Source of the DNA: Oscillospiraceae bacterium
Lineage (GTDB): Bacteria > Bacillota > Clostridia > Oscillospirales > UBA929
DNA length: 64,000 nt
Direction: 5' to 3'
Assembly: GCA_009777475.1 (NCBI GenBank)
Contig: WRLU01000012.1
Location: 1,122-65,121, forward strand
The translations under genes were made by a program, and so were the position numbers. The notes under the pieces are model-generated. The model saw only the letters and a list, made by a program, of their open reading frames with translations. It searched no databases and was not told the DNA's origin. Shown here in pieces: positions 1 to 18,923 of the stretch (position 1 is the first letter of the stretch; each line of letters opens with the position of its first letter).

Positions 1-1
1 A

Positions 2-2323
2 CATATTCAAACGCCTGAAGAACTTGCGGCCATCGGCGGTGCAGCGAGCGAGGGGAAATATTATGTGCTGGACAACGACATAAACCTTGTTGAGGAGTGG
101 ATGCCCATTGATGACTTCCGAGGCACACTGGATGGACAGGGGTATAGCGTTAATAATCTGTGGATGGCGGTGGAGCCGCCTGCAAGTTCGAGTCATATTG
201 GGGCAGGGTTGTTTGGTAAGATAACAAAAAGCGTGACTATTAAAAATCTAGGGGTCAATATTGGGGAACAAGGCATCACTGCTTCGGCAGAGGATAGATT
301 TGGACGTGTAAGCTCCGGGGGTTTGATTGGTCGTTTTGACGGAGGCGATACAAGCGTACTTATTATTGAAAATTGCTTTGTAAGGAGCAATGTTTCTGAA
401 ATTCCTCATGACTTTCTGTTTCCGCAAAGTTCCGGCGGGCTGATTGGGGCTTGCTACGATGGTGACGAGGTGAAAATCAAGAACAGTTTTACCGTTGGAA
501 ACATATACGCCCGTATGGATGCAGGGGGATTGATTGGACTTATTGTCGCCGAAAGGGGCAATATACTTATTGAAAGATGCTATTCTATAAGTGATGTAAC
601 GGCATTTGCCATTTACGGTTCTCATATTATGGATGGAATTACAGGGGGATTGGTTGGTGATTGTTGGGGTTCATCCGATGCGACCCTCAAGATTGAGCGT
701 TCTTTTACAACAGGGTATATAGAGGGAAATATGGCGGGCGGTTTGATCGGACGTATTGACGGCGGTATTGCCGCAGATATATTGAATTGCTATTCAGGTG
801 CCAATATTGATGCAACTGCTGTTGCCGGAGGACTCATTGGTTACTGTTCCAATACAACAGTAAAAAACTGTTATGCCGCTGGAGATTCTGTTTGGGCAAG
901 GGGATACTTCCCGCCAGACCCGGATAATGTCTATTGGGCAGGCGGATTGATTGCGGAGCTTGAAGATACTGTGGTGACAAACAGCTACCGCCTGTCAACG
1001 CAAATTATCAACGGGTCGGTAATTGAAACTGCCGGAGAACCGCTGACTGAATCCCAAATGGGGAGTGCAGAATCATTTGATGGCTGGGATTTTGACTTGG
1101 TTTGGGGATACATTGGCAGCAATGATTTCCCTGTCTTGCGTTCTTTCGGCAGCATCCACATAGCTGTTTCATCCGCAACCATAATGAAGGATGGGGAATC
1201 ACTCACAGACCCTGTGTTTGTTCTTGCTGGCAATACTGAGCAGCTGACAGCAAAAGTTGCGCCATTTATATCCACCAATAAAACTGTATCATGGCAAAGT
1301 GACAATCCCGCCGTCGCAACAGTTGACGAAAACGGGTTAGTAGCAGGAATCGCAGGGGGCGAGGCGACAATTACTGTGACAACAGAAGATGGGGGATTAA
1401 CAGATTCTTGTACCGTTAAAGTAAGTGATGCAGGGATAGATTTTTCCCTGATACCTGACATTATTATCAAAGGCAGGATTGACGATGTTGAAAGTGACGA
1501 ATATTTTATCAACCTGACAGATGAAACAATAACAATCCCAAACACATACACTCCTGCCGCATACAGCATTAACGGCGGAAACAAGTGGAAAGCGATAAAA
1601 GACAGTTCAAAAAGCCCGTTCACCAAGTTAAATTTCCCTAAAATGTTCAATAAAACCATGACATTACATTTGTCTGATATGCCGATTGATAAAGAATCAA
1701 AAGTGGGTGGCGTGAAGAACCCGAATAAAGGCAAGCCGCAAACAGGAGCAACAATTGTAATTTTCCCTGAAATACACAAGCGTATTCCCCTGCCAAAGCT
1801 GATGCTAAATTATGCACTTGGCGCAGATAAATCAAACGAAACAACAGGGACATGGCTGCTTGCGGAGAAAGGTTCGGTTGCATCCACAAAAGAGGGCTTA
1901 GTGATTGCTGAGGCTGATGTATCGGGAAAGCAGCCCAATGAAAACGGATTCGGGAAATTTATCGGCAAAAACGGCACAAATAACGGCATTGTGATAAAAC
2001 CTCTTAACTCGAACAACAAGCAAGCCAAGAGTACATATCTGTACAAAGTAGGGGCGGTTGAAGCTAGGGACGGTCGTTACTGGGCGGCAAGCAAGACAAA
2101 AAGAGCAACTGTCAAAGGGCAAAGAAAAGCACCAAATTACAAAGTCAAGGATGGTGTTATTAAAATTAAATCAGGAACAAGCGTTGTCTTGAGTGGCACA
2201 CAGACAGAATACACTGAGAAAACTGGCATAAACGTGGCTGATCACGCTAGTACAGCAGCAAATCTTTGGCTCTATGCAACGGCGAAAAAACCAGCATCAA
2301 AAAAACAAGAACTGGGCATCTGA
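2..2323 (+). CDS. Secreted GLUG-repeat / Big_2 surface protein, 5' end off-window; carries shared C-terminal module (family member P1)
   Basis: The frame is open back to nt 2. HIQTPEELAAIGGAASEGKYYVLDNDINL precedes the track's GTG at 65 and parallels ISNRAELEAIAGNLSGTYHLTADIDL in ORF 15489. It has at least 7 GGLIG/GGLVG GLUG-type repeats and a Big_2-like segment (VSWQSDNPAVATVDENGLVAGIAGGEATITVTT). The shared module starts at about nt 1427. Confidence 0.8.
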   Translation, partial: HIQTPEELAAIGGAASEGKYYVLDNDINLVEEWMPIDDFRGTLDGQGYSVNNLWMAVEPPASSSHIGAGLFGKITKSVTIKNLGVNIGEQGITASAEDRFGRVSSGGLIGRFDGGDTSVLIIENCFVRSNVSEIPHDFLFPQSSGGLIGACYDGDEVKIKNSFTVGNIYARMDAGGLIGLIVAERGNILIERCYSISDVTAFAIYGSHIMDGITGGLVGDCWGSSDATLKIERSFTTGYIEGNMAGGLIGRIDGGIAADILNCYSGANIDATAVAGGLIGYCSNTTVKNCYAAGDSVWARGYFPPDPDNVYWAGGLIAELEDTVVTNSYRLSTQIINGSVIETAGEPLTESQMGSAESFDGWDFDLVWGYIGSNDFPVLRSFGSIHIAVSSATIMKDGESLTDPVFVLAGNTEQLTAKVAPFISTNKTVSWQSDNPAVATVDENGLVAGIAGGEATITVTTEDGGLTDSCTVKVSDAGIDFSLIPDIIIKGRIDDVESDEYFINLTDETITIPNTYTPAAYSINGGNKWKAIKDSSKSPFTKLNFPKMFNKTMTLHLSDMPIDKESKVGGVKNPNKGKPQTGATIVIFPEIHKRIPLPKLMLNYALGADKSNETTGTWLLAEKGSVASTKEGLVIAEADVSGKQPNENGFGKFIGKNGTNNGIVIKPLNSNNKQAKSTYLYKVGAVEARDGRYWAASKTKRATVKGQRKAPNYKVKDGVIKIKSGTSVVLSGTQTEYTEKTGINVADHASTAANLWLYATAKKPASKKQELGI

Positions 2324-2389
2324 CAAGGGTCTAAACATTTCTCGTGCGGGGAGTGTTGGGATATATTATGACTGAAGGGGCGGATTCTA

Positions 2390-5300
2390 ATGAGAAAGAA
2401 TATGTTTTTACAGAGAGGTATTATCACATTATTGGCATTTTTCGTGCTGTCATCTTGCGTTGCTGTATATGCGGCACCTGTATTAAACGAGAAGCAGATT
2501 GTCAAACAGCCAAATGGAGAGGAATTGACTTGTTTTCTAAGCGGTGACGAATTTTTCCGTCACCTGCATTCTGAAGAAGGTTGGCTCATCACCCAAAATG
2601 AAGATGGATGGTATGTCTATGCAAAATTAGATGAAAACGGGAAGCTTGTTCCCTCAGAAACCGTTGCAACCAATGATGATACGCCCTCTGCATTGTCATT
2701 AGGACTGATAACCGCTGAAGATATTGATTTTGACCTCAATCCGGATTTGGTATGGATGCCGGAGGATGATGACATAGAAATTCCTGCTTGGGATTCTGCA
2801 TATGGTTATGTTGGGGCAAAACGGGATAAGCCTTTTGAGGGCAAAATTGAAAATATCATTATTCCGATAGCTTTTGCAGACCAAAGCGACACACTCAGCG
2901 ACACACTCAAAAACAGAATCAACGGAGCTTTTAACGACAATAATCCGTCTTTGAAGCACTATATGCACACCGTATCGGATGGATTGGTTGATATTCATTC
3001 AACGCTTGTTGGGCTGAATAACGCTGCCGTTTTTATGTATAAGGATAAGCATCCGAGGTCGTATTATATGCGGTCGAGTTATCGGGATGATGCCGTACGC
3101 AAGCAACGCGAACACGCCATGTTGCGCAATGCAATTCAGTCAGTCAACAGAAGCATATTGCTAAGTGGGAAAAAATTAGATACACTTGTTCCTGGCACGG
3201 TAGACAGCATTACCTTCATCGTTAGTGGTGATGAAGTGCGAACCGGAGGAGAAATGCTGTGGCCTCACAAGTGGGCGTTTGATAAAAATTATGTAAAATT
3301 AAATGGTCTGAATGTCCGTGAATACAGTTTTTTAGTCGAAAATCATATGTTTCGAGCAGATGGGACTGATAACGTGTCGGTTATCGCCCATGAGCAACTC
3401 CATGTGGCATCATTTCCAGATAACTACAGATACCGAGTTAGCAGCAGAGCGGTTGGCAGACCTGTTGGCGGCTGGGATGTGATGGCTGAAACAGACGATA
3501 ATAAGCCGCAGCTTCCCAATACACACGCCTTACTTAGATATGGCGGATGGGGCTATGGTCTTGCTGAACTAACAGAAAACGGAAGGTACGCTATCAGCCC
3601 TGTCGGCAGTCAGACAGGGATTACAGCATATGCCATCAAGACAGATGTGGAGAAAGAGTTTATTCTTATAGAATGTAAAAACGGTACAAACGATTCGGGA
3701 TATGACAAATTGTTTGGAACCGCTCCAAATCCGCTAGATTACAATCCAGGATTGACTATTACACGAATAAACTTAGATTTCAGCGGAAATGCGAACCGGG
3801 ACGGCGGCAAAAGAGATGAGTGCTACACCTACCGCCCAAATGAAGAAGAACGAAACGGCGGTTGGGGCGATATTGAGAACGCTTCTTTCTCCGCCGATGC
3901 AGGGAGACTTACCTTTGGCGGCGGCGATGATTTTAAGAATCAGATGTATTTGTTCGGAGTAAACAACACTACAGATTACGAAATTTCCAATGTGTCTGCT
4001 ATAGGCACGGACGGCACTATGACCTTTGATATCAAAATTAAGCCCGATACCCCTAGTATCAATGTGGCATATATTTCCGATGTCAAAGGAAAAATTGATG
4101 CCGATTATAATGGTGAGGTTTTTGAATCCGGCGGTATCGTAACAGATGGAAACGTCAAATTTAAGGCTACACCCCTTCCTGGTTATATGGTTGAGCGCTG
4201 GTTTGTGAATGGTATCGCACAGCCGACAAGCGACCGCGAGTTTATACTTCCGATAGTACCTTTCATGGAACGCAGCACAACTGTTGCCGTTACATACAGA
4301 AAGGCAGATTCTTCTGTTGCGGTTGATGCTCCCGTCATCAAAACAAACCCTTCTGATTTGAGTATGATTTCAGCAGCGGATACGGTTGAAGTTACAATAG
4401 AATCAGACTATCCTGAAATTTACTACACCTTGAACGGCAAAACTCCTACGCCAGATTCAGAAGTATACGATGGAACACCAATTGAAGTCACAGCAGGTAC
4501 GCTGAGGCAGGCAACAAAAATAATTACAGCATATGCAGTACATGAGGATGGTATTGCTTCTGAAATGGTTTCGCAGGATATTGTCTTTCGGGATGCAACG
4601 GGCATAGACTATTTTGGCATTGAAACGGTCTTAGTTCCGCGCATACCGCCTAATCCAGACGACCCAGATTCCCCGGACGATCCAGACAATCCTGCTGCCA
4701 GCGGATTTTACATTGACTTGCAAGACGAAAAACTTGTGGTTCCATATGGCTATGTGCCTACGGCGTACAGCGTTGATGGCGGGAAGAAGTGGAAAAAAGT
4801 AAGTGTGGATATCGACAACGAGAAAAACCCGCTCAATGCGGCAAATTTCCATAAGCTGCTCAATAAAGACTTGAGTCTGTATCTTTATGATAAAGAGTTT
4901 TCGGGCAAGATTCCACCAGAGGATGCGGAGTTGATGAAGTTTGAAAACATAAACAAACGTCCCAAGGTTACTAAACTAAAAATCGACTATGCCATTGCCG
5001 CAGACAAAACAGGATTTACCACAGGCGAATGGGTACTGTCTCCTGACAAAACTAATGCACACAAAGGCGGTCAAATTGGTCGTGCCGTAATTTTAAGCAA
5101 CGGCAAACCCGGCAAAGTAGTTGATGAACAAGGTTGGGGTCAATTCTCACCAAGAGGAGGCGTCCTTGTAGAAAAATTGGGCGAGAGCGAAACCAAAGCG
5201 AAGAAAACAACTTACTTCTATAGGGATGCTCCTAAACGAAATGTTGCTCCTGATGGCACGGTGAGTTTTATGGCAGCCAGCAAGCTCAAAAAGTATTCGG

Positions 5301-5575
5301 CTCTTAGTGAACAGCCGAAACCAAAATACAGCAAAAAGGGCAACGAGATTAAACTTAAAAAGGGTGCTTACATATATGCGGGTTCGCTCGTAGATGCCAG
5401 TCTCCCTGCAACAGATTTTATAGCAACTAAGACCACAAGCACAGAATTTGAGGAGGGGAAATTGTATTACCTCCCTGCAAAGGCAACAATCCCTGCTATA
5501 TCAGGTGTGACCCATACTGTTTGGAACGAGGCTGGAAAAAAGCCTGTGACCCAAAGGTTAGAGATAACAGACTAG
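2390..5575 (+). CDS. Secreted (possibly lipoprotein) M6/immune-inhibitor-A-like metalloprotease with CHB_HEX_C-like domain and shared C-terminal module (P2)
   Basis: Signal peptide with a lipobox-like LSSC. HExxH motif at VIAHEQLHV. N-terminal GDEFFRHLHSEEGWLITQNEDGWYVYA resembles M6-domain proteins. EIYYTLNGKTPTPDSEVYDGTPIEV resembles a chitobiase C-terminal domain. A Pro/Asp linker is followed by the shared module from about nt 4706. Confidence 0.7.
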   Translation: MRKNMFLQRGIITLLAFFVLSSCVAVYAAPVLNEKQIVKQPNGEELTCFLSGDEFFRHLHSEEGWLITQNEDGWYVYAKLDENGKLVPSETVATNDDTPSALSLGLITAEDIDFDLNPDLVWMPEDDDIEIPAWDSAYGYVGAKRDKPFEGKIENIIIPIAFADQSDTLSDTLKNRINGAFNDNNPSLKHYMHTVSDGLVDIHSTLVGLNNAAVFMYKDKHPRSYYMRSSYRDDAVRKQREHAMLRNAIQSVNRSILLSGKKLDTLVPGTVDSITFIVSGDEVRTGGEMLWPHKWAFDKNYVKLNGLNVREYSFLVENHMFRADGTDNVSVIAHEQLHVASFPDNYRYRVSSRAVGRPVGGWDVMAETDDNKPQLPNTHALLRYGGWGYGLAELTENGRYAISPVGSQTGITAYAIKTDVEKEFILIECKNGTNDSGYDKLFGTAPNPLDYNPGLTITRINLDFSGNANRDGGKRDECYTYRPNEEERNGGWGDIENASFSADAGRLTFGGGDDFKNQMYLFGVNNTTDYEISNVSAIGTDGTMTFDIKIKPDTPSINVAYISDVKGKIDADYNGEVFESGGIVTDGNVKFKATPLPGYMVERWFVNGIAQPTSDREFILPIVPFMERSTTVAVTYRKADSSVAVDAPVIKTNPSDLSMISAADTVEVTIESDYPEIYYTLNGKTPTPDSEVYDGTPIEVTAGTLRQATKIITAYAVHEDGIASEMVSQDIVFRDATGIDYFGIETVLVPRIPPNPDDPDSPDDPDNPAASGFYIDLQDEKLVVPYGYVPTAYSVDGGKKWKKVSVDIDNEKNPLNAANFHKLLNKDLSLYLYDKEFSGKIPPEDAELMKFENINKRPKVTKLKIDYAIAADKTGFTTGEWVLSPDKTNAHKGGQIGRAVILSNGKPGKVVDEQGWGQFSPRGGVLVEKLGESETKAKKTTYFYRDAPKRNVAPDGTVSFMAASKLKKYSALSEQPKPKYSKKGNEIKLKKGAYIYAGSLVDASLPATDFIATKTTSTEFEEGKLYYLPAKATIPAISGVTHTVWNEAGKKPVTQRLEITD

Positions 5576-5596
5576 GAAAACTTTCAAAAGACAGCA

Positions 5597-5637
5597 GAAC
5601 CCATGGGCTGCCAGTGATGGCGGCTCATGGGTTCTTT
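5597..5637. terminator. Bidirectional stem-loop between convergent genes
   Basis: gaacccatgggctgcc / ggcggctcatgggttc imperfect inverted repeat followed by ttt, 20 nt after the P2 stop. Confidence 0.5.
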
Positions 5638-5673
5638 GAAGTTCCGGTCTTTGGTGTGGTTGAGATGCCCGGC

Positions 5674-5955
5674 TCAATCGTCAGGCATTACCAATCGCCC
5701 ATCCTCATCAACCGTTCCCTCATAAAACTCATCCAGCGGTTGGAAAGTATGCCCATACTTTTTGTTAAGATATCCCGCATTGAAATTGCATTCAGACGGC
5801 TTGCCCGTTTCGGATTTGAGGGAGTATACTTGTTCTCGGTGAACAAAGTATGTTGCTGTGTGCAATTCATCGCAGTTAGAAACGGGGTAGGTTCTTTGGA
5901 AAAGCTGAAAATCCTTAACTCTATGCCCGCCTTTGAGTTTGTAAAAATTAGTCAT
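5674..5955 (-). CDS. Hypothetical protein (93 aa)
   Basis: The ORF overlaps the upstream gene by 8 nt, suggesting translational coupling. No family recognised. Confidence 0.45.
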   Translation of the reverse strand: MTNFYKLKGGHRVKDFQLFQRTYPVSNCDELHTATYFVHREQVYSLKSETGKPSECNFNAGYLNKKYGHTFQPLDEFYEGTVDEDGRLVMPDD

Positions 5956-6325
5956 CGTCTTGCACCTCCTCGCCGCTCCCGGCAGTTTCGGTACGAAGTT
6001 CCTTCTGCATAGACATTTTAAGTGTTTTCAACCTCTCCGTGACCCCATATTCACTGGTAGGGTTTGGATTGAACCATTTGCCTTCCCATAAATAATAAAC
6101 GGTGATAGTCTGAAGCTGCCCATCGCCAGAGGTGAAGCGGGAGTGTTCACGCTTATATTCCATCGCAATTATGCGGGTGCCGTCCGGAAGCTTGTATTGA
6201 TAATACGTCTGCCCCAATTCCGGCACGGTCAGCCACTCGCCCCACTCCTTGTAATTTTTCAGAAATTCCGTCCTTTTCCCGCCGTTTGCCCACAGCCTGA
6301 TTAGCTCTTCCTTTTTTTGTTGCAT
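5948..6325 (-). CDS. Hypothetical protein (125 aa)
   Basis: Start placed at MQQKKEE (ATG 6325) behind a taggagagggg RBS; the track's longer N-terminus lacks an RBS. No family recognised. Confidence 0.5.
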   Translation of the reverse strand: MQQKKEELIRLWANGGKRTEFLKNYKEWGEWLTVPELGQTYYQYKLPDGTRIIAMEYKREHSRFTSGDGQLQTITVYYLWEGKWFNPNPTSEYGVTERLKTLKMSMQKELRTETAGSGEEVQDDD

Positions 6326-6565
6326 AATAAATGCCCCTCTCCTAAATAATGTGCGGCCGCACAAGCGTGACCGCCACTAACATATATCACTCAGGTTGCT
6401 AAATAAAGCAAGTCAATTCTGAGGCATATAATGCACAAACATTCGAGGCTAATTTTGTGCAGGTTGTATCTGTCTTTTATGGGAAAAGCAGCAAGGGCAA
6501 AACATGGGTTTTACCCTTGCTGTGCCGGCTGAAAAAGCGTATACTAAAACAATAGAAAGGTTTTT

Positions 6566-6952
6566 ATGAGAAACAGGCAAAAAGCACCAGACAAACAGAA
6601 AACACCGGGATTTTGGAATGGGTTTTTCTTGCAGATGGGGATATATGCCGTTATGAATGCCCTGCGGATTGTGGTTGGGGTAAATATTCTGGCAAAGGCC
6701 GGTCCGTACGGAAATGCTGTATTCACCTGCGACACCATCCTCAAACCGACCGATCACAGTTGGCAGATTTTTATGCTTGGACTGATGGTTGTGTATGGAC
6801 TCTTTTCCCTTGTGTTTTTTGGGATTCGCTTCAGAAAATCTGAGATTATCCGAGGATTCTTCGTAGGGACGCTAGTCGCACAGACTGCCGCCGCCGTGCT
6901 GCTTCTTTGGGAAGGGCCAACGCCAATTATGGGGACTTGCTCCGGGGTTTAG
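6566..6952 (+). CDS. Small integral membrane protein (about 4 hydrophobic segments)
   Basis: Hydrophobic helices GFFLQMGIYAVMNALRIVVGV, IFMLGLMVVYGLFSLVFFGI and FFVGTLVAQTAAAVLLLW. Confidence 0.45.
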   Translation: MRNRQKAPDKQKTPGFWNGFFLQMGIYAVMNALRIVVGVNILAKAGPYGNAVFTCDTILKPTDHSWQIFMLGLMVVYGLFSLVFFGIRFRKSEIIRGFFVGTLVAQTAAAVLLLWEGPTPIMGTCSGV

Positions 6953-7073
6953 GTATTAGTGGTTATAAAATAAAGAACCTTGAATGTAGGGGATATATGC
7001 TATCAAGGCGGATGGATATTTTCTTCAAAATGCTATATTATTTGAGGAGATCAAAAAAGGCAGGAGACCATTT

Positions 7074-7293
7074 ATGTCACAATATAAGCCAACAGAAGAT
7101 GGAAAAAAAAGTTAAAGTTGAACTGAATGATGATGGGACATTGAAGCGGCTTGATGAAATTTCACAAATCCAAGAAGACGGCAAACACAGACACGCATGG
7201 CTAAAAAAAACGGAAGAGGGCGATTACAAATATGGGACACATCCTGCCGATAGTAAAACAGATGATTCGCGAAGAGATAAATTTTCAGGATAA
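7074..7293 (+). pseudogene. Small charged protein gene, frame broken at an A8 tract
   Basis: ATG 7074 has a good RBS (aggcaggagaccattt) and reads MSQYKPTEDGKKS-stop. Removing one A from the run 7103-7110 joins it to the long frame VKVELNDDGTLKRLDEISQIQEDGKHRH... that ends at 7293. Confidence 0.4.
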
Positions 7294-7457
7294 TATCCTT
7301 GTGTTAATTGATGTGTAGAATTCTAGCATAAAGATTTAGCTGTGGGGAGAAAACCAACGGCTAGGCGGTTCTTGTTTTCTGCAGATGCAAGCGGGTATCA
7401 GCGTTAAATCCTAAGGAGTTTGGGTCAGATTCCGCCCAGACACATACCCGCCTCATT

Positions 7458-8060
7458 TCAGCCTATCACTCCTGCTATAATCGTAATTACGCCGAGAACA
7501 GCATGGCTGATGCCCACTCCTATCAGGTTCTTGGATTTCTGATAGGAGGCATACCAAATTAGCCCAATGAAGAACGTTAGCAGCAATGTTAGCCAGTCTT
7601 TATAGATGATGTGGGCAAAGCTATACAACAGGGTTGAAATGAGCATTACGCCAATCGGTCTGATGTTTTGGCGTTCGAGGCTAACAGTTAAAGCTCCCCT
7701 GTAAAGAAACTCTTGAATAGGCGAGGATATAAAGATATAAAATATGAAAAAGTTCCAGGTTTCATTAGGGATTATTCTTGAGTACCCGCTAAAATAGATG
7801 GCCGCACCAATAATCAGCAACACTACTGTCACGGGCAAGACGTGAAGGATGGATTTCCCCCACTGCTTTGATGTGATTCCCATATCTTCATTTGAAAAGC
7901 CAAGCAATCTAAAAATCGCATACGTTGCAAAACCACCAACGGTAAGTGCGTAAAATTTATACTCAAAACCAATAACATCAAACAAAATGGATATCGGCAA
8001 GCCTATGTAGACTAGAAATATGATGAGCCATAGACTGTATTTTTTTGTAGCGGGGTTCAT
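7458..8060 (-). CDS. CPBP family intramembrane glutamic endopeptidase (CAAX/Abi-like)
   Basis: Multi-TM protein with the three CPBP motifs: QEFLYRGAL (EExxxR type), LLYSFAHIIY (FxxxH) and ISHAVLG. Confidence 0.75.
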   Translation of the reverse strand: MNPATKKYSLWLIIFLVYIGLPISILFDVIGFEYKFYALTVGGFATYAIFRLLGFSNEDMGITSKQWGKSILHVLPVTVVLLIIGAAIYFSGYSRIIPNETWNFFIFYIFISSPIQEFLYRGALTVSLERQNIRPIGVMLISTLLYSFAHIIYKDWLTLLLTFFIGLIWYASYQKSKNLIGVGISHAVLGVITIIAGVIG

Positions 8061-8220
8061 TGCAACGACACGTCTCTCTAAGAAATCTTCTGCCCCTACG
8101 ATACCACGATTTATGCATGATTACAATCGACAACGCTATTTTCAATGCCTCCGCTTGACTGCACAAGGGTTTTTATGGTATGCTCCATGTCAGTAAGAGC
8201 AAAAAGGGAGGGGGTCTTAC

Positions 8221-8943
8221 ATGGCATACACACGCTGGAATGAGAGCGGATATTATATTTTCGGCGGGGAAGATGATATTGATTTCGATGGGAAATCTAT
8301 CTCCAATGATAAAGTGGATGTTTTTCTGCATGGTCTTTTCGATGAGCAATATGGCGGCGGCAGAGAATTTTGGGAACGCTTCCATCACGGCAGACGAATC
8401 ACTGAAAACTTCCAAAAGGGTTTCCGTATCCAAAAACTTTCTCAATATGAACCCGATATAAAGGGACAAATCGCTGGTATTTCTGCACTGGCTGGAGAAA
8501 TCTGGCGGGAGCATTACACGCCCATTGTCGGCTCTGAGCAGGTGGAGTATATGTTGGAAAAATTCCAGTCCGCCAAACAAATTTACGCCGATATTAAAAA
8601 CGGCCACACCTATTTTACGACAAAAAATATTGACGGAGGCGGCTTAATCGGCTACTGTGCTGCTGTGCCGGAAGATGATGCCTTGCTTCTCAGCAAACTC
8701 TATGTCCATCGTGATTTCCGAGGCAATGGCATTGCCCGCGCTCTGTTGAACGAGGCAGCCGCTCTGTGCAGATCGTATGGGCGTGACAAAATCTGTTTGA
8801 CCGTAAACAAGAATAATACCGATGCGATTGCCGCGTATAAAAAGATGGGATTTTGGATGGACGATTCAATTAAAATAGATATCGGTAACGGGTTCGTTAT
8901 GGACGATTTCGTGATGGAATATATCGTTGGCTGGAGAATATAG
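8221..8943 (+). CDS. GNAT family N-acetyltransferase with extra ~65-aa N-terminal region
   Basis: Acetyl-CoA-binding core LYVHRDFRGNGIARALLNEAAALCRSYG ... AIAAYKKMGF. The start is uncertain. Confidence 0.7.
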   Translation: MAYTRWNESGYYIFGGEDDIDFDGKSISNDKVDVFLHGLFDEQYGGGREFWERFHHGRRITENFQKGFRIQKLSQYEPDIKGQIAGISALAGEIWREHYTPIVGSEQVEYMLEKFQSAKQIYADIKNGHTYFTTKNIDGGGLIGYCAAVPEDDALLLSKLYVHRDFRGNGIARALLNEAAALCRSYGRDKICLTVNKNNTDAIAAYKKMGFWMDDSIKIDIGNGFVMDDFVMEYIVGWRI

Positions 8944-9073
8944 CGTGTTGGATGTGCTATGTTTTGAGACTCGGGTCGGGAGGTTCAACGAGGAATTTTT
9001 CATTGCGTTTACCCTAAGAACATGGTAAGATGAAGCTGTTCATAAATTTACGGTTCAAGGGGAAGCAGACACT

Positions 9074-10123: not shown

Positions 10124-10190
10124 TTTACGGAAAAGCCTGTTTTCACGCCGACCTGACACCCTTTGTTGCATATCCCAGCGAGGGGAGCAG

Positions 10191-10865
10191 TTATCGCACA
10201 AAAGTTTGAGTCTCCCTCCCAAACCGTAAAATTGTATGACAGCTGACGTGGTAATACAACCCAGGGCATAAACAAAGATTATCTTGTTTATGCCCTGCTT
10301 CTATTTCGCTCAACAGTAAATCGTTGATTGTAACTGGGTTTTCCCCCGAATTGAAGATGAATGTAATCTTGTCATCATATAGATATATCGCATTGACAAA
10401 TACGGCTATCAACGTCTTTCTGTGCCTCGATTCGGTCATATCACCCTTTCGCAGAGCGTTCAAGAAAAACTTGACCTTCGGTACAGTCAACGAAGGGTAA
10501 TTCTTTTCTTCCAGTGCAATTTCCTTTTCAATCCTTGCGTGTTCCTGCTCCAGTTCTGGTGCTTGCAGATATAAAGACTTTCGGAAACTTTCGTTGTCAC
10601 ATTCCATGACCGCATTCATCAAATTTTTATGCTTCCGCTCATTTTCAGAAAGCTCTTTTTTCAGCCGTCTTAAATTGGTGGTGTCTTTTTCAGCTTCACA
10701 GACCGCAACAACCTCTTTTGCTATTTTTTCAATATTCTTGTCGGTCAAGAGCTTGTGACATTCGGCAACAACAAGGTCTTCGATGTAATCTTTGCCAACC
10801 ATTTTCTTCTTGCAGAGCTTCTTTTTTGTTCCGTTGCAAATTCCTATCGGTGCCGGACGTTTTGA
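10191..10865 (-). pseudogene. 3' remnant of a large serine recombinase (catalytic resolvase domain missing)
   Basis: An in-frame TAA at 10866-10868 is followed by ...ICNGTKKKLCKKKMVGKDYIEDLVV, the second half of a zinc ribbon. Next come a coiled-coil region and the tail LIAVFVNAIYLYDDKITFIFN. No N-terminal resolvase domain lies upstream. Confidence 0.65.
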
Positions 10866-10966
10866 TTAGGCTAAATTGCGCACCTCCGGTTCGTCAATAT
10901 GCACAACTATGCACAGCATAAGCTGTGAACAAAGTGTAAGCAATGCTCACGCCATCGTGGGATGTC

Positions 10967-10995
10967 TTGACAAAAACACAAGGGTATGGTATTGT
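10967..10995 (+). promoter_or_regulatory. Sigma-A-type promoter for the WG-repeat surface protein gene
   Basis: TTGACA (10967-10972), 17-nt spacer, TATTGT (10990-10995). Confidence 0.5.
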
Positions 10996-11066
10996 GCGTT
11001 GTATACGATGTGTACTATGCGGTAATACACGTTCGTAAAATATCTAAAACCAAGGAGGAGTAAATT

Positions 11067-13403
11067 ATGTTAAAGTCAACAAAAAGATTCTGGGGTATTG
11101 CTTTGGCACTGACGATGCTGCTGGGGATGGTGTCTTTCGGCCCGGAGATTTACGCGGAAGAAATAACCGGGTCGCAAGCTAAACTCTTGTTCCCTCCTGG
11201 AATGTATGATTCTGTTGAATATGTTGAAAATTCACGCTTCATAGTGAGGAACGGCGATGAATATGGGCTGACAGATAAAGAAGGGCAGTTTATCATCCCA
11301 ATGGGAATGTATGATGGTGTCTGGCCTGGAGCGTGGGGTTATGTAGATGGGCACTTCACGGTGGAGAAAGACGGCGAAATAGGAATATTAGATAAAGATG
11401 GGCAGCTTGTTTTCCCGATGGGAATGTATGATTGGGTTGAGTACATTGGAAATGGGCGATTTATGGTGAGTGAAATGTCCCCACCCTACAGAGTTGGAAT
11501 GGCAGATAAAGATGGCCAGCTCATTGTACCGCTGGGAATGTATGAGGAGTTCTTCCCCATGAGAAATGGGTTCTTCGTGCATGAAGATGGCGAGTGGGGA
11601 GTAATAGATAAAGATGGGCAGATCGTTTTTCCATTGGGAACATTTGATGATGCTGTGCTGTGGGATGACGGAGCAATCCCTGTGAATGTCGTTGTGGCTA
11701 AAGATGGAAAATGGGGCCTTGTGGGCAACGGCGAGATAATAGTTCCGTTGATACATGAGTATAAATCTGTCTGGCCTGCTGACTGGGCAGGTGAATACTT
11801 CATGGGAGAGACATATGATGGCAGTGTATGGGGTTCTGTATTATTAGACAAGAGCTTTTCTCCGGTTTTCCCTGAGAAAATACATGGTGAGTATGATTAC
11901 GTCTGGCCTGCTGGAGATGGATACTTTGAGATAGATAAAGGTTCAGAATCAATAACCGTAGACAAGGATGGCCAGAAGGTTTTCCCGGGAATGTATATTA
12001 ATGTTTGGTATTTGAATAATGGACGGTTCGTTATATATAATTCCGAAGGGGCGGGGATTGTAGATAAAGATGGTCAGGTGATTTTACCATTGGGAACGAT
12101 TCAGAGGGCATACTCTATGGGCGGAGGAGAAGATAGGTACAGCAAGGATGGGTACATAGGAGTTTACGGTATCAACCTAGACGAGTATGGGAATAACGAG
12201 TCGTGGGTTATAGACAAAAACAACCAGATTGTTTCACCGCTGGGAGGAGATGCCTGGTATTTTGGCGATGGGGTCTTCAGGATAGGAGACTGGAATTCAA
12301 ATACCTATTATGTGCATACAATAGAGTTGGGTCCCGAACCCAGCGAACCCCCCGCAACCCCTTCCCCTGAGGTCAGCCCCACGCCAGACACCGTAACCCC
12401 CTCGCCGGAGATCCCCACTCCCTCGCCGGAGATTCCCTCACCTACGCCTACACCCGAAACAACCGATGACTGCTGCATTGACTACAGCGAAAAAGACCTC
12501 GTTGTTGATGGCTCAGCACAAGATTTCACCATAAATCTCACAACTGAGAGACTCGGCATTCCGGTGAATGCGGATTTCACCGCCGCGGCCTTCAGCACGG
12601 ACGGCGGGGCGAAGTGGAAGAACATCAAGCCGGAAATTCAAGCACCGAGAGACGATAAAAACCCGCTGAACAGCCGTACAAGCAAAGGCAAAAACAACTT
12701 TGCCAAGTTGCTAGGCAAAGGCATGACCCTGCATTTGTCCGACAAGCCATACAACAGCAAAACAAAAAGCCTTGAAGACGGTGCGTTTGAGGTAAAATTC
12801 CCGAAAATTGAACCAGCTAAGCCCCTGCCGAAATTAGCAGTGAATTACCTCTTTGGTGCAAACGAAAAGAGCTGCTATGGGGAATTTGACGGTCAGTGGG
12901 TTTTGATGACCAAGGTTAAAAAGGGGCAAGCCCCCCAAATCGCTAAAGATGACATACAAATAGCCGCCGAGGAGTTGGCTATGGGAGGCCTCGCTGTCCG
13001 CATAATGGGTGCATGGGGTAAGTTTTATTCCGGCGAAACCAATGGGGTTTGTGTAAGACCATTACAAAAAAACGAAAAGGGTAAAGATGTTGTGGTAAAA
13101 AGAAGATACTTTTACCGCGTACCTCCCAGCGGCGACGGCACAACGGCAAACCCCTACACAGCGGCAAGCAAGCCCAAGAAAATCACAGCCACAAGTCAGC
13201 AGAAAACACCCAAATACAAAGTCGACACCAAGAAGAGCATTATCAAATACAAAGCAAATACATACGTCAGCATAAACGGCGGCGTCCCAGAGCTGAAACT
13301 TGGCAAGGGTGAATTGCCGATTGCGGATGGTAATACATATGAATTCTGGATGGCGGCTACAGTTAAGAAATCGGCCAGTGCCAAGCTGAAAATAGGCCAC
13401 TGA
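11067..13403 (+). CDS. Secreted WG-repeat protein with Pro-rich linker and shared C-terminal module (P3)
   Basis: Signal peptide. About 10 WG/KWG-type repeats (GEYGLTDKEGQFIIPMGMYD, GEIGILDKDGQLVFPMGMYD, GEWGVIDKDGQIVFPLGTFD, GKWGLVGNGEIIVPL). Linker PEPSEPPATPSPEVSPTPDTVTPSPEIPTPSPEIPSPTPTPE. Module from about nt 12465. Confidence 0.8.
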   Translation: MLKSTKRFWGIALALTMLLGMVSFGPEIYAEEITGSQAKLLFPPGMYDSVEYVENSRFIVRNGDEYGLTDKEGQFIIPMGMYDGVWPGAWGYVDGHFTVEKDGEIGILDKDGQLVFPMGMYDWVEYIGNGRFMVSEMSPPYRVGMADKDGQLIVPLGMYEEFFPMRNGFFVHEDGEWGVIDKDGQIVFPLGTFDDAVLWDDGAIPVNVVVAKDGKWGLVGNGEIIVPLIHEYKSVWPADWAGEYFMGETYDGSVWGSVLLDKSFSPVFPEKIHGEYDYVWPAGDGYFEIDKGSESITVDKDGQKVFPGMYINVWYLNNGRFVIYNSEGAGIVDKDGQVILPLGTIQRAYSMGGGEDRYSKDGYIGVYGINLDEYGNNESWVIDKNNQIVSPLGGDAWYFGDGVFRIGDWNSNTYYVHTIELGPEPSEPPATPSPEVSPTPDTVTPSPEIPTPSPEIPSPTPTPETTDDCCIDYSEKDLVVDGSAQDFTINLTTERLGIPVNADFTAAAFSTDGGAKWKNIKPEIQAPRDDKNPLNSRTSKGKNNFAKLLGKGMTLHLSDKPYNSKTKSLEDGAFEVKFPKIEPAKPLPKLAVNYLFGANEKSCYGEFDGQWVLMTKVKKGQAPQIAKDDIQIAAEELAMGGLAVRIMGAWGKFYSGETNGVCVRPLQKNEKGKDVVVKRRYFYRVPPSGDGTTANPYTAASKPKKITATSQQKTPKYKVDTKKSIIKYKANTYVSINGGVPELKLGKGELPIADGNTYEFWMAATVKKSASAKLKIGH

Positions 13404-13474
13404 CCTTCCCAAATGACGATATGGTTGCAGGGCCGTAACCCCCACAGAACTAAAAGGTATGCCGCTTGTTTTGC

Positions 13475-14149
13475 CTAGCCGTCAAACCTGTAGCCTAACC
13501 CGCGCAGGGTAACTATAAGCTCGCTGTAGGGGCCTAATGCCTTGCGGAGTGTTTTTATATGCGTATCCAGGGTACGGTCATCGCCGTAAAAATCATAGCC
13601 CCACACATTAGTAATCAGGGTTTCACGGCTCAGAGCTATATTGCGGTTGTTTACTAAATAAAATAAAAGAGCCCTTTCCTTTGGGGAAAGATTTGCCAGA
13701 GTTCCATCAACCATAACTGTCCGTGCCTTAAAGTTTACCGTTAACCCGGCCTTTTCGTATGCCTGCACCGCTGCTGTCCCTGGGCATCCGCCTGTTCTTG
13801 CCACAACCGCACGTACACGCAGCATAAGTTCCTTTGGGGAAAATGGCTTAGTAACGTAATCGTCCGCACCGGACTCAAAGCCATGGATGCGGTCGTACTC
13901 TTCACCCCTTGCGGAAAGGAGAATTATCGGTATCCGGCTCTGTTTTCTAATTTCGCGCACCGCCGAAAATCCATCAAGCTCAGGCATCATAACATCGAGG
14001 ATAACCAAATCAAATTTAATCTGCCGGCAAAGCTCAACAGCCTGCATGCCATTTTCCGCCTCGGTAACGTGGTATCCCTCAAACTCGGCATATTTACGGC
14101 AAAGCTCGCGGATTTTTGCTTCATCGTCACAAATTAGAATTTTAAGCAT
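13475..14149 (-). CDS. OmpR/PhoB-family response regulator, no adjacent kinase
   Basis: Receiver domain (ILICDDE ... DLVILDVMMPELDG ... KPF) plus a winged-helix C-terminus (DRTLDTHIKTLRKAL ... LRGLGYRF). Confidence 0.9.
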   Translation of the reverse strand: MLKILICDDEAKIRELCRKYAEFEGYHVTEAENGMQAVELCRQIKFDLVILDVMMPELDGFSAVREIRKQSRIPIILLSARGEEYDRIHGFESGADDYVTKPFSPKELMLRVRAVVARTGGCPGTAAVQAYEKAGLTVNFKARTVMVDGTLANLSPKERALLFYLVNNRNIALSRETLITNVWGYDFYGDDRTLDTHIKTLRKALGPYSELIVTLRGLGYRFDG

Positions 14150-14345
14150 ATGAATCCCTCTGTATTAAAAAATTACATTGTCTACGACTATTGCACAGCA
14201 CAACCGGCAATTCTGAGGTCAAGTGTAGCATAAAAGAGTGTGATTGGTCAATAAAATGTTTCCGCCCCAGTTTTTAGGAGGCGGATATCCCTGCTTGGGT
14301 TTAGTGTAAAATATTATCAAAAAATTATAAAGGAGATATTTTTTT

Positions 14346-15296
14346 ATGTCGATACGATTACAGATTCAAAACAAAAAACAAATTTTAGAGCCTGTGGCTG
14401 AAGGAGGGATTACTGTCGAATGGGAAGAATCAAGAACTCCGGGGAAAATGTCATTCTCACTTCTGGCTGATAAAAAATTGCGGATAGAACAAGGGAACAG
14501 GGTTAAGCTGTATGTAAACAAGAAGCCGGTGTTTTTAGGATATATCTTTATCGTGGAGCAGGGCCAGGGTGATACGGTGAAGGTTATATGCTATGATCAG
14601 CTGAGATACTTGAAAAACAAGGACACATATATCTTTGAGAACAAAACGGCGGATGAAATTATCGGAATAATTGCAAAGGATTTCCAGTTATCTGTTGGGA
14701 AATTGGCGGGAACGGGTTATAAATTTGAAAGCCTTGTTCAGGATAACAGGAGCCTTTTGGATATAGTTGCCGAGGCTTTGGAGGAAACTGAGCTTCACAA
14801 AAATAAAAAATATGTTTTTTATGATGATTTCGGCAAGCTTTGCCTTGCAAGCCAGGATGATTTGCGGCTTAGGCTCTTGGCGGACAAGGATACGATACAG
14901 GATTTTCATTATTCCTGCTCGATTGATGGGGAAACATATAACAAAATCAAACTAGTCCACCAAGACCAGAGCGCGGGGAGGAGGGCGGTTTACGGTGCGC
15001 AAGACAAGAGCAATATTGATAAATGGGGGATTTTGCAATACTGTGAAAGCATTGACGGCACAGTTAATGGGCCGGATGAAGCTGAAAAGCTGCTTGGGCT
15101 ATATAACCGCCCGGCAAGGTCATTGCAGCTGAGCGGTGTGCTCGGAGATGTGAGGGTAAGACCCGGATGCCGTATTTACGTTAATATAAAAACCTATGCC
15201 GGGAGGATAAATGCCGGGATGACTGTGGAAAGGGTGACACATAATTTTTCAGAAAGCCTCCACACAATGGATTTAACGCTGAAGGTAAACAAATAG
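14346..15296 (+). CDS. XkdQ/YqbQ-family phage-tail baseplate-like protein (orphan)
   Basis: Size (316 aa) and the motif block VICYDQLRYLKNKDTYIFENKTADEIIGIIAKDF recalled from PBSX XkdQ-type proteins. RBS aaaggagat. Confidence 0.6.
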   Translation: MSIRLQIQNKKQILEPVAEGGITVEWEESRTPGKMSFSLLADKKLRIEQGNRVKLYVNKKPVFLGYIFIVEQGQGDTVKVICYDQLRYLKNKDTYIFENKTADEIIGIIAKDFQLSVGKLAGTGYKFESLVQDNRSLLDIVAEALEETELHKNKKYVFYDDFGKLCLASQDDLRLRLLADKDTIQDFHYSCSIDGETYNKIKLVHQDQSAGRRAVYGAQDKSNIDKWGILQYCESIDGTVNGPDEAEKLLGLYNRPARSLQLSGVLGDVRVRPGCRIYVNIKTYAGRINAGMTVERVTHNFSESLHTMDLTLKVNK

Positions 15297-15488
15297 CAGA
15301 AAGGGTAACCGGGCAGTTGTTTTTCGTCAAATTGCACAAAATCCGCACATGAATTTGCACTTTACTTTCAGTCGGTATTATGGTATGCTTGTCACAAGCG
15401 TTGGGATTTGCTTGAAATCCAAGGCTTTTAATTCCTCTATCCGGCATAAAAGCACGGCGGCATAGGGAGACCAGGAGGATTCAGTTTT

Positions 15489-17954
15489 ATGAAATCTGTT
15501 TTAACGACAGGCCGCGCAATGAGGCGGCCCGGGGTGCTGGCTCTTGCGGCGGCACTGCTTCTTGCGCTGCTGCCAGCAGCTCCCACCGTTGCCCCGGCTT
15601 TGGGGGCATCCGGCGCGGGACTGAACGAGCTGGTACCACGGCACGGTCCCAACGGCAGGTTCCTCGCGCCCATTGAGCCGCTTGCTACCGCTACCGATTC
15701 TATCCCAATTTCCAACCGCGCGGAGCTGGAGGCCATCGCCGGTAACCTGTCCGGTACATATCACCTGACAGCAGACATCGATTTAGCAGGCAGGAACTGG
15801 ACCCCGATTGGCACCTATGGCACCTACGGGTCCCATTTTGGTGGCGTATTTGACGGTCAGGGACATGTCATACGCAATATGACCGTCATGGGGGAGCATA
15901 CCTATGCGGGTTTGTTTGGTTATGTTGGTGGCTCGGACATTAAAAATGTCGGGCTGGAGGGTACGGCTATAGCCTCGTCATCCAGCTCTGCCGGAGGAAT
16001 TTACGGTAGTGCCTTTGGTGGTGCCAGCGTGACTAATTGCTACAATACCGGAAATGTCTACGCTTTTTCATCTGGGAGTTCTTGTGCCGGAGGCATTGCA
16101 GGGATTCCTGCGTATTCTACCATCAGCGATTGCTACAATACCGGCAATGTCTACGCTTCCTCATCCAGCACTTACGCCGGGGGCATTGCAGGACACTGGG
16201 CGCACAGCATCGTCAATTGCTTCAATACCGGCAATGTTTCCGCTTCTGCGTCTGGTGATTCCTACGCCGGGGGTATCTTCGGCTCAATCTCAAAGTATGG
16301 CTCAGGCACAGCCAATTGCTACAACGCCGGCTATATTTTCGCGTCCTCTGGTACAGTGTCTTATGCCGGGGGCATCGGCGGTTTATCAGAGGGGCACATC
16401 AGCGATTGCTGGAATACCGGGGATGTCTACGCACGTTATAGTGGCGGCGGCGGTTCTCACGTTGGGGGAATTTCTGGCCATGCCAATGGCACTTTGGATT
16501 CCTACATTACATCTGCCCCTATAATTCGCAGCTACAACACCGGAAATATCCACGGCAACGGTGGTGCTACCGGGGGAATTGCCGGTAGCACTGTACTAGC
16601 CCCCATCCGCAGCTGCTACAATACTGGGGATGTTTCCACTGAGCAAAATTACTCCCGCTCCATAGGAGGTATCTGCGGGGTGGCCAGTGATAACTCCCCC
16701 ATCAACGATTGCTACAACACCGGCAATCTTTCCGTTAATTTTACTTACTCCACTGGCCCGGGAGGTATCATCGGCGGTGCCGATGATACCTCCCCCATAA
16801 TCAATTGCTACAACATCGGCGGTCTCACCGTGGACGCCCCTTCCTACGTAGTGGATATTACGATGGGGGGGATCGCCTCGCAGCAGGGTGCCTCCCTCAG
16901 CAATTGCTACTGGAACACCGACAGCGAGCAGAGCTTCAACGGTGCCCCATGGGAACCCAAAAGGGGAACCGGCGGCGATGTGGATGACGATGCAATCCCG
17001 CTCACCAGTGCCCAGATGAAGCTTCAGGAGAGCTTTGACGGCTTTGATTTTGACGAGACCTGGGATATAGACCCGGATATCAATGATGGTTACCCCATTT
17101 TGCGCGGCTTGCCCAATTATGGCGGTTACCCGCGCCCGGTTCCCCCTCCCGGCATCTGTAACGACGACTGCATTGACCGCTCCGCCACCCCTGACATCAT
17201 CATTCCCGCCGACGGTGATGCAGAGCCGGAAATTAATCTGACAGCGGAAACAATCGACCTTGCCGGATTTGACGTTGCCGAGTTCAGCGTGAATGGCGGT
17301 ACAAAGTGGAAGGCGGCGAAGGATACCTTCACCAATGCCCTGAAATTCTCCAAGCTGTTCAATAAGGGCATGACTCTTCACCTAAAAGACGCAGGGGGCA
17401 ATACCATCTCGTTCCCGGCGATCAACCCCCGCCCAAAGCCCAAGCTGAAGGTCAACTACGCAATAGCAGCTGACAGCGGGGAGTTTGGCGGCCAGTGGGT
17501 GCTAACTGAAAAGAATGGCACAGCGGCGGTTAAAACGGACATACAAATCGGCGTTGCCGGGCCGAATGCCAAGGGTGTTGAAAATAAAGGCAAGGCGGTT
17601 GACCAAGACGGCTGGGGCAGGTTCCTGCCAGGACTGGAAAACGGCGTCTGCGTCAAGCCAATCGGTGAAAAAAACGGCAAGCCTGCCGTGGTGAAAACAG
17701 TGTTTTTCTACAGGGCGGCACCATCGGCTGAAGGCGGTTTTACTCCCGGCTCGGCACAAAAAAAGGTCAGCGTAACAAGCCTGCTGAAGCCGCCTAAATA
17801 TAAGCCAGGCAAAAGCAAGGCCAAGGCTGACAAGACATATGTCAATGGCGTGCTGTACGCCAAAAAGGCGGAGCTTACCTTGGCAAGCGGCGATCAGGTG
17901 TGGCATGGTGCCACGGCTAAGAAAGCGGCTAGTGCGAAGCAGACGGTGGGGTAG
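15489..17954 (+). CDS. Secreted GLUG-repeat protein with shared C-terminal module (P4)
   Basis: Ala-rich signal peptide. More than 10 repeats of NCYNTGNV...AGGIAG/AGGIFG/VGGISG type. Module from about nt 17160 (NDDCIDRS...). The 3' end overlaps convergent apbE by 26 nt. Confidence 0.85.
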   Translation: MKSVLTTGRAMRRPGVLALAAALLLALLPAAPTVAPALGASGAGLNELVPRHGPNGRFLAPIEPLATATDSIPISNRAELEAIAGNLSGTYHLTADIDLAGRNWTPIGTYGTYGSHFGGVFDGQGHVIRNMTVMGEHTYAGLFGYVGGSDIKNVGLEGTAIASSSSSAGGIYGSAFGGASVTNCYNTGNVYAFSSGSSCAGGIAGIPAYSTISDCYNTGNVYASSSSTYAGGIAGHWAHSIVNCFNTGNVSASASGDSYAGGIFGSISKYGSGTANCYNAGYIFASSGTVSYAGGIGGLSEGHISDCWNTGDVYARYSGGGGSHVGGISGHANGTLDSYITSAPIIRSYNTGNIHGNGGATGGIAGSTVLAPIRSCYNTGDVSTEQNYSRSIGGICGVASDNSPINDCYNTGNLSVNFTYSTGPGGIIGGADDTSPIINCYNIGGLTVDAPSYVVDITMGGIASQQGASLSNCYWNTDSEQSFNGAPWEPKRGTGGDVDDDAIPLTSAQMKLQESFDGFDFDETWDIDPDINDGYPILRGLPNYGGYPRPVPPPGICNDDCIDRSATPDIIIPADGDAEPEINLTAETIDLAGFDVAEFSVNGGTKWKAAKDTFTNALKFSKLFNKGMTLHLKDAGGNTISFPAINPRPKPKLKVNYAIAADSGEFGGQWVLTEKNGTAAVKTDIQIGVAGPNAKGVENKGKAVDQDGWGRFLPGLENGVCVKPIGEKNGKPAVVKTVFFYRAAPSAEGGFTPGSAQKKVSVTSLLKPPKYKPGKSKAKADKTYVNGVLYAKKAELTLASGDQVWHGATAKKAASAKQTVG

Positions 17955-18894: not shown

Positions 18895-18923
18895 GGCACA
18901 GCTCCTATCAAAACTGGTTTTTA

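Follow-up and report, generated by a model that had tools for sequence, protein, structure and literature searches.

The pairing of one constant module with variable heads is a well known organisational principle among secreted proteins. In Clostridioides difficile the constant module is CWB2 (PF04122), which may stand at either end of the protein, occurs in many paralogs per genome, some of them clustered, and has been demonstrated to bind non-covalently to an anionic wall polymer, PSII (PMC4973711). SLH domains, which are found in the same bacterial group as the proteins described below, are likewise terminal and hold diverse extracellular proteins on secondary cell-wall polymers, and SLH, CWB2 and LysM are all known from either protein end (PMC5817068). 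The poorly characterized WxL domains (PF13731) of Lactobacillales and Bacillales are C-terminal, span 120–190 residues, are encoded by clustered genes and bind the wall non-covalently (PMC5817068), while the GW modules (SH3-8) of Listeria InlB and Ami and the C-terminal regions of Lactobacillus S-layer proteins (PMC5993097) are basic parts of acidic proteins that bind lipoteichoic acid electrostatically. Here, a module with this general organization is described that forms the C-terminal 264–312 residues of four proteins encoded on the forward strand of a 64,000-nucleotide stretch of DNA from an uncultured Oscillospiraceae bacterium of the termite-gut type (contig WRLU01000012.1, positions 1,122 to 65,121; the whole of this stretch is referred to as the window). 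The organisational principle is not new; the module itself is uncatalogued. Our preferred explanation, to which we assign a probability of about 0.4, is that it constitutes a new unit for non-covalent binding to a polyanion, in all likelihood one of the producer's own wall polymers.

A previous reading of this DNA, made from the letters and translations only (the sequence-only reading), had proposed that the C-terminal parts of four open reading frames align colinearly through eight conserved blocks, (a)–(h). The four genes lie where that reading placed them (Table 1), all of the blocks are present in the translations as quoted, and the colinearity was borne out both by a MAFFT alignment of the four modules, in which the copies are 33–42% identical to the first sequence, 41 columns are invariant and the mean column identity is 51%, and by pairwise BLASTP comparisons of the four copies (33–39% identity, E-values from 1e-23 to 3e-44). 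The likeness of the four modules is far beyond chance. A profile hidden Markov model (HMM) built from the four sequences matched exactly these four copies in a six-frame translation of the 64 kb (E ≤ 1e-111), the second copy being the most divergent, with an insertion in its last subdomain and a degenerate terminal motif. Pfam-A and NCBIfam gave no match within the module at E ≤ 1 for any of the four proteins, PHROGs returned nothing significant for the four modules (best E 0.18), and PDB sequences searched with profiles of 4 and 48 sequences yielded chance-level matches only (E ≥ 0.1). The module is absent from all four resources, in keeping with its description as unrecognized in the sequence-only reading, and the names given by NCBI to the proteins that carry it ('WG repeat-containing', 'Ig-like domain-containing', 'chitobiase/beta-hexosaminidase C-terminal domain-containing') reflect the heads alone.

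The window edge truncates the gene of protein 1, whose complete sequence is available as a database copy (P0007; NCBI MCL2082500.1) of 829 residues that starts with a signal peptide. Its head matched Big_2 (E 2e-17), with Glug remaining under the cut-off, and the M6-type metalloprotease domain of the second protein was recognized by TIGR03296 with an E-value of 4e-21, under the NCBIfam cut-off. The head domains are those named by the sequence-only reading, but its view of the four heads as mutually unrelated stands only in part: the heads of proteins 1 and 4 show a relationship at 28% identity (E 1e-15 to 1e-17), so that the head types unrelated to one another number three, not four. A signal-peptide-like N-terminus, called by eye and with a crude heuristic, is found in all four proteins, namely in the three complete ones, for which it had already been reported, and in the first through its full-length copy. 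In three of these proteins the module is immediately preceded by a Pro-rich linker. The fourth gene (15489–17954) also stands out by its composition, with a G+C content of 52–55% compared with 41–47% in the adjacent genes and a head that is very poor in lysine (0.9%), which could reflect either a recent acquisition or a different expression regime.

None of the established retention devices was recognized in the four proteins. At E ≤ 1, Pfam gave no match to SLH (PF00395), CWB2 (PF04122), CW_binding_1 (PF01473), LysM, SH3b/GW, WxL (PF13731) or SPOR, nor were the sortase signal LPXTG (PF00746), dockerin (PF00404) or cohesin (PF00963) found by Pfam in these proteins, so that the lack of LPXTG, SLH, CWB2, dockerin and choline-binding domains noted from the sequence alone was upheld. 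CWB2, CW_binding_1, LysM, SH3b/GW, WxL and SPOR are also missing among the 25 families listed for 62 and 39 relatives of the two architectural groups considered below, and a regular expression combining the sortase motif with a hydrophobic stretch detected no case among 152 relatives; the window proteins stop 3–5 residues past an A-T-A-K-K-P-A-S-x-K-Q motif. A cohesin domain does occur in one relative (P0135), where it is located in the head, outside the module. Membership of the WxL family, suggested by the conserved G-x-W-[VL]-L, was rejected for want of a profile match; the taxa are also different, the module exceeds the WxL domain in size and comprises three domains, and the motif resembles W-x-L only superficially. 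The module contains one copy of the motif S-x-[DN]-G-G-x-K-W, which recalls an Asp-box; Pfam found no BNR/Asp-box (PF02012) in the four proteins and the predicted fold is not a propeller, and the resemblance is limited to the motif level. No FN3 profile (PF00041 and relatives) was matched inside the module by Pfam, which detected only Fn3_assoc, in the head of the second protein, and neither Pfam nor NCBIfam related the module to a carbohydrate-binding module (CBM) family, to which it also showed no significant fold match. Compared with CWB2, SLH, the GW modules and the S-layer basic regions, the module lacks any sequence match or similarity.

The four copies are members of a large family. An exhaustive profile search over 1.84 billion cluster representatives recovered relatives, mainly of gut Oscillospiraceae, in 602 clusters at 50% identity (E ≤ 1e-3), 503 of them at E ≤ 1e-10 and 199 at E ≤ 1e-30; a word-indexed protein search, which returned 5 and then 16 relatives only, greatly understates the family. 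The genomic setting was sampled by a pattern-limited scan with one genome per species, which provided 25 loci. Of these, 22 are from Oscillospiraceae metagenome-assembled genomes (MAGs), most of which take their names from gut samples of higher termites (Th196, Nt197, Cx337 and others; described in PMC7024585), two are from Lachnospiraceae MAGs and one is a short contig binned as Treponema; a few other carriers come from ruminant and further MAGs. The supposed Treponema sp. locus (L013) is a 4.1-kb contig (WQXQ01000135.1) with two module-bearing genes, the remaining 24 loci being clostridial, and its spirochaete assignment is probably a binning error or possibly a case of horizontal transfer. 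Paralogy is pronounced, with at least six module copies in the MAG Nt197P3bin72, and module genes are adjacent to each other in L001, L006, L009, L012 (three genes), L013, L020 and L021; in the window there are four and a distant fifth.

The architectures were determined for the 152 best relatives of the 602. The module lies within 25 residues of the C-terminus in 112 proteins (~74%), begins no more than 130 residues from the N-terminus, just past the signal peptide, in 24 (~15%), and is internal in 16 (~10%); the C-terminal position seen in the window is not, then, constant across the family. Ten of the 16 internal cases consist of the module followed by one extra beta domain of ~95 residues (D4) at the C-terminal end. 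This optional domain, which has no Pfam match and which none of the four window copies possesses, follows the module in 19 of the 152 relatives (among them P0065, P0073, P0087, P0094, P0104, P0106, P0116, P0127, P0129, P0135, P0136, P0147 and P0152) and is marked by the motifs L-D-K-K-Y-E-V ... K-W-G-x-L-P-K ... R-L-K-A-T-A-K ... A-A-S ... Y-G ... A-E-I. Copies that are C-terminal end with the conserved A-T-A-K-K-P-A-S-x-K-Q and fewer than six further residues. In 62 proteins of this kind Pfam identified Glug (13), Big_2 (13), BspA-type LRR_5 (9), RCC1 (5), MACPF (4), Flg_new (3), Peptidase_S8 (2), M26 (2), M64, GH43 and GH28 in the heads, and no wall-anchor family. Among 39 N-terminal or internal cases, on the other hand, six carry SLH (P0042, P0062, P0068, P0086, P0088 and P0096); these are giant proteins of 2,470–2,790 residues in which a signal peptide is followed by the module, long Big_2/He_PIG arrays and three C-terminal SLH domains. 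An iterative search with the SLH region of P0042 confined SLH to these six, and the other 146 relatives have neither SLH nor a sortase-type C-terminus, leaving the module as their sole candidate retention element. Secretion is a general trait: 110 of the 140 relatives that start with Met have a signal-peptide-like N-terminus, and the other sequences are for the most part evidently truncated as gene calls. Some short proteins, such as P0094, P0103, P0116 and P0129, are made up of a signal peptide and the module (with or without D4) and carry no cargo. As a separate observation, many module copies open, just past the Pro-rich linker, with a Cys pair or a single Cys in the motif [GD]-C-C-I-D-Y (positions 12465–12485 and 17160–17180 of the window, and relatives P0003, P0004, P0011, P0012, P0044 and P0078), which is replaced by G-I-D-Y in other copies, and in P0005 the module is preceded by an N-terminal region that is extremely rich in Cys, Asp and Glu.

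The charge of the module is a further feature of the whole family. In the window, the modules contain 12.5–13.8% lysine and have isoelectric points (pI) of 9.35–9.61, compared with 4.2–4.65 for their heads. Among the relatives, the median pI is 9.67 and the median net charge +14.5 when the module is C-terminal, and about 9.2 and +6 to +7 when it is N-terminal or internal; outside the module, the proteins have a median pI of 4.7–5.0; the modules of the SLH giants are also basic (pI 8.6–9.6). An alignment of 48 sequences displays 23 columns with at least 70% Lys/Arg, five with at least 70% Asp/Glu and 13 that are at least 80% aromatic. Given these 23 Lys/Arg columns, the positive charge is positionally conserved and not merely a matter of composition.

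The third copy was modelled with AlphaFold2 from an 18-sequence alignment as a compact all-beta structure, with a mean predicted local distance difference test score (pLDDT) of 85.6 and a predicted TM-score (pTM) of 0.81. Such a compact and confident model points to a functional unit rather than to beads on a string. Foldseek searches with the whole module gave weak matches to tandem FN3/Ig arrays only, such as titin A84–A86, LAR FN1–4 and phage FN3 tail decorations, with best E-values of 6e-3 against the PDB and 7e-4 against BFVD, probabilities of up to 0.94 and TM values of 0.15–0.27. With low confidence, part of the module may be assigned to the tandem FN3/Ig-like beta-sandwich fold class. 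In our reading, the tail motifs of blocks (f)–(h), Y-x-Y-R ... A-A-S-K and W-x-x-A-T-A-K-K-P-A-S, resemble signatures of the late strands of FN3 domains. Three subdomains were delimited approximately. The first (D1), of about 86–115 residues, contains I-N-L-T-x-E-T, S-x-D-G-G-x-K-W and K-L-L-N-K-x-x-T-L-H-L-S-D; when that of copy 4 (17181–17438) was modelled alone, the model was confident (pLDDT 91.2), and no PDB fold match was obtained, the best hit being expansin domain 2 (E 0.23–1, TM < 0.4), which is not significant. Comparisons of D1, D2, D3 and D4 by hhalign gave probabilities below 3% throughout, so that no tandem repetition is detectable among them. CWB2, by comparison, has an alpha/beta fold with three tandem trimerising repeats, whereas the module is predicted to comprise three differing all-beta subdomains; the SLH fold is helical, and that of the GW modules and of the S-layer basic regions is SH3-like or SLAP, not FN3-like.

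Taken as a wall-binding unit, the module would function as follows. Proteins composed of head and module would be exported via Sec, and the module would fold into three tightly packed beta subdomains, the orphan D1 with its Asp-box-like S-x-D-G-G-x-K-W hairpin and two FN3/Ig-like sandwiches. The positionally conserved Lys and Arg residues would contact a polyanionic polymer, the likeliest ligand being made by the producer itself, either a teichoic-acid-like polymer or a secondary cell-wall polymer, and the acidic heads (proteases, GLUG, BspA-type LRR, RCC1, WG, MACPF and glycosidases) would be kept non-covalently on the cell surface, joined to the surface-held module by the Pro-rich linker. 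The module would thereby fill the slot that is taken by SLH, CWB2, WxL or GW modules in other Firmicutes. The existence of the family, its domain architectures, the predicted class of fold, the conserved charge and the lack of other anchors are what the data show; binding itself, the polyanionic nature of the ligand and its location on the producer's wall are what we infer. The four window proteins are most likely to be held on a negatively charged surface by their module.

This explanation is favoured because one constant module is borne by many unrelated heads, because 146 of the 152 relatives have no other retention element, because all parts of the family retain the positive charge, because the relatives are secreted, because a Pro-rich linker precedes the module in three of the four window proteins, and because paralogs are many and often in tandem, as in CWB2 families and WxL clusters (PMC4973711; PMC5817068). 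The binding of basic modules to anionic wall polymers has precedent in CWB2 and PSII (PMC4973711) and in the Lactobacillus S-layer and lipoteichoic acid (PMC5993097); the latter, together with the GW modules, exemplifies the mechanism proposed here. The suggestion of surface anchoring made in the sequence-only reading is therefore plausible, in so far as the module is the only retention candidate in most relatives and carries a conserved charge, but it is unproven, and the pairing of the module with three SLH domains in six relatives means that the module is not simply 'the' anchor in every protein, nor are SLH and the module simple alternatives in every protein, as both occur, at opposite ends, in those giants.

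Several observations weigh against wall binding. In the six giants the module lies far from the proven SLH anchor, a placement that better suits an outward-facing adhesive tip. For MACPF pore-formers and for GH28 and GH43 heads, the expected site of action is away from the producer, and the proteins reduced to signal peptide and module (with or without D4) would represent an anchor without cargo. The non-covalent wall-binding domains tabulated in PMC5817068 were not detected in the module, no cultured organism is among the carriers that were found, and no relative was found in viral contigs or GenBank phages; since there is no phage relative, no link to an endolysin or a receptor-binding protein backs wall binding.

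The first three of these points fit the most serious alternative, which we hold to be possible although unlikely: the module may be a CBM-like targeting or adhesion unit for an anionic polymer outside the producer, such as the pectin or glucuronoxylan of plant fibre, or one presented by the gut lining of the host or by other microbes on their surfaces. Enzymes and toxins would be delivered to this target, to which the giants would also attach the cell by their tips, so that a single function would cover both the distal N-terminal module of the six SLH giants and the C-terminal module on proteases, GH28, GH43, GH17 and MACPF. CBMs and FN3-like modules are typically found at either end of proteins, behind Pro/Thr linkers. 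The co-occurrence of Cohesin and BACON with the module in one relative, the presence of conserved aromatic as well as conserved basic columns, and the lignocellulose-digesting habitat in higher-termite guts (PMC7024585) fit the same explanation. Against it, no carbohydrate-binding family was matched by sequence or by fold, most of the conserved aromatic residues may belong to the beta-sandwich core, and most of the heads (GLUG, BspA-type LRR, RCC1, WG and Big_2) are typical of cell-surface display and not of enzymes; were the proteins simply released, moreover, the lack of any other retention device in all 146 relatives would be odd.

Protein–protein docking is an improbable alternative. The modules would bind to each other or to a common partner, with client proteins hanging on the tip modules of the SLH giants, or, in a variant that shares this low estimate, giants on neighbouring cells would bind tip to tip and aggregate the cells. 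Slightly less probable still is the elaboration in which self-recognising modules support a cellulosome-like surface display in uncultured gut Oscillospiraceae, based on a fold that includes the orphan D1 and is not that of cohesin and dockerin. A proven anchor is found only in the giants, and their number relative to that of clients (six versus about 112 among the 152 best clusters) is similar to a scaffoldin-to-enzyme ratio; furthermore, Ig/FN3-like domains often mediate homophilic contacts. The modules of giants and clients are, however, both basic, which would cause like-charge repulsion and led us to reject charge complementarity between them, and no giant is encoded in the window or beside client genes in 26 loci, the one giant locus (L026) being without a client gene. 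The docking model is attractive but unsupported, and should be regarded as speculative.

Of comparably low probability is that the module serves as a passive Ig/FN3-like stalk or spacer with no specific ligand, its charge being incidental. Tandem FN3 arrays, the only fold matches, are often spacers, and the option of appending a fourth beta domain, as in 19 of the 152 relatives, points the same way. A spacer would nevertheless be expected between domains, yet the module is terminal in ~89% of the proteins (74% C-terminal and 15% N-terminal); it is always a fixed three-part unit with 23 conserved basic columns, its D1 is strongly conserved and has no PDB fold match, and in the window proteins the Pro-rich linkers already space the heads.

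The sorting function raised by the sequence-only reading, in the form of a T9SS-CTD-like (type IX secretion system C-terminal domain) or sortase-like signal recognised and possibly removed during secretion, is scarcely credible and, as a C-terminal signal, is excluded by the modules directly after the signal peptide (23–24/152) or internal (16/152). In its favour, ~74% of the relatives have the module as their very last part, closed by the conserved terminal motif. Against it, the proteins already carry Sec-type signal peptides, the neighbourhood offers no conserved gene for a dedicated machine, neither a transmembrane segment nor a sortase motif is present, and ~290 residues are far above the size of known sorting signals. 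The T9SS CTD of Bacteroidota resembles the module as a C-terminal beta-sandwich domain shared by secreted proteins with many heads, and is about 80–100 residues long, strictly C-terminal, cleaved, and dependent on the T9SS of diderm Bacteroidota. In contrast, the module spans ~290 residues, is also N-terminal or internal, occurs in Oscillospiraceae (Firmicutes), which are not known to have a T9SS, and matches neither of the profiles Por_Secre_tail (Pfam) and TIGR04183 (NCBIfam); it is not a member of that family. N-terminal occurrence refutes a sorting signal and not a wall binder, given that SLH, CWB2 and LysM are also found at either end.

Table 1. Positions of module genes, module parts and neighbouring features in the window
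Feature	Position	Strand	Remarks
Paralog 1 gene	2..2323	+	5' end cut by window edge; head of GLUG-like repeats and Big_2, then module
Module copy 1	1427..2320	+	298 residues; pI 9.61; 12.8% Lys; HMM score 414 bits
Paralog 2 gene	2390..5575	+	Signal peptide, M6-type metalloprotease domain, CHB_HEX_C_1/Fn3_assoc, Pro/Asp-rich linker, module
Module copy 2	4706..5572	+	289 residues; pI 9.35
Paralog 3 gene	11067..13403	+	Signal peptide, WG_beta_rep head, Pro/Thr/Ser/Glu-rich linker, module; NCBI MCL2082510.1, 'WG repeat-containing protein'
Linker of paralog 3	12330..12464	+	Pro/Thr/Ser/Glu-rich, 45 residues, abutting module copy 3 upstream; from translation
Module copy 3	12465..13400	+	312 residues; pI 9.46; copy used for structure model
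D1 of copy 3	12486–12824	+	Approximate; read from secondary-structure string
D2 of copy 3	12825–13202	+	Approximate; read from secondary-structure string
D3 of copy 3	13203–13400	+	Approximate; read from secondary-structure string
OmpR-type response regulator	13475–14149	-	Between paralogs 3 and 4; no histidine kinase adjoining
YQBQ-like gene	14346–15296	+	Between paralogs 3 and 4
Paralog 4 gene	15489..17954	+	Signal peptide, GLUG-repeat head, short Pro-rich linker, module
Module copy 4	17160..17951	+	264 residues; pI 9.40; most compact copy
Distant fifth relative	41602..44085	+	827 residues; secreted-looking; partial match, 22.5 bits with broader HMM

The gene at 41602..44085 encodes what is probably a distant fifth family member, although the evidence is weak. 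Its product, in which Pfam found no match, ends with ~220 residues (about 43420–44082) that form two units similar to the module's last subdomain; these end in ...SATEKKPASEAQVL and ...SATAAKPASDWQRFTV-stop, respectively, and the stretches reported by hmmsearch span model positions 178–274 and 217–275.

The genes that separate the paralogs encode a CAAX/Rce1-like protease, a GNAT acetyltransferase, a RhuM-family protein, the orphan OmpR-type regulator and the YQBQ-like protein, and an ApbE gene follows paralog 4. An OmpR-type regulator recurs in three loci, with a homologue near module genes in L010 and L021. Beyond antisense shadow open reading frames, no conserved neighbour was found near the genes of the relatives in the 25 related loci, and for this reason no dedicated partner, processing or secretion machine is indicated. 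The RhuM-family gene (9074–10123, E 6e-109) and a large N6/N4 DNA methylase gene (28993–31236) may represent mobile or defence-related content. Between paralog 2 and the CAAX-protease gene, a region of ~1.9 kb (5576–7457) contains only short open reading frames of 128–163 codons, none of them with a convincing match in Pfam; neither a remnant of the module nor an Rfam element was found there, and Rfam returned nothing for the whole of bases 1–20,000. Judging from the genes for FapA (flagellar assembly; 27234–28754) and for a methyl-accepting chemotaxis protein (32570–34474), the organism is probably motile.

With 602 clusters and no Pfam, NCBIfam or PDB counterpart, the module merits a domain-family entry of its own, and D1, for which a confident model has no PDB fold match, is a reasonable target for structural genomics. 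If its role in wall retention or surface binding is confirmed, hundreds of unnamed proteins would become recognisable to annotators as surface-displayed, and the module might provide a new display tag for anaerobes. A non-homologous, all-beta architecture would then join the short list of Gram-positive modules for non-covalent anchoring, and the module would define the main surface-protein family of a large group of uncultured gut Oscillospiraceae, chiefly from termites.

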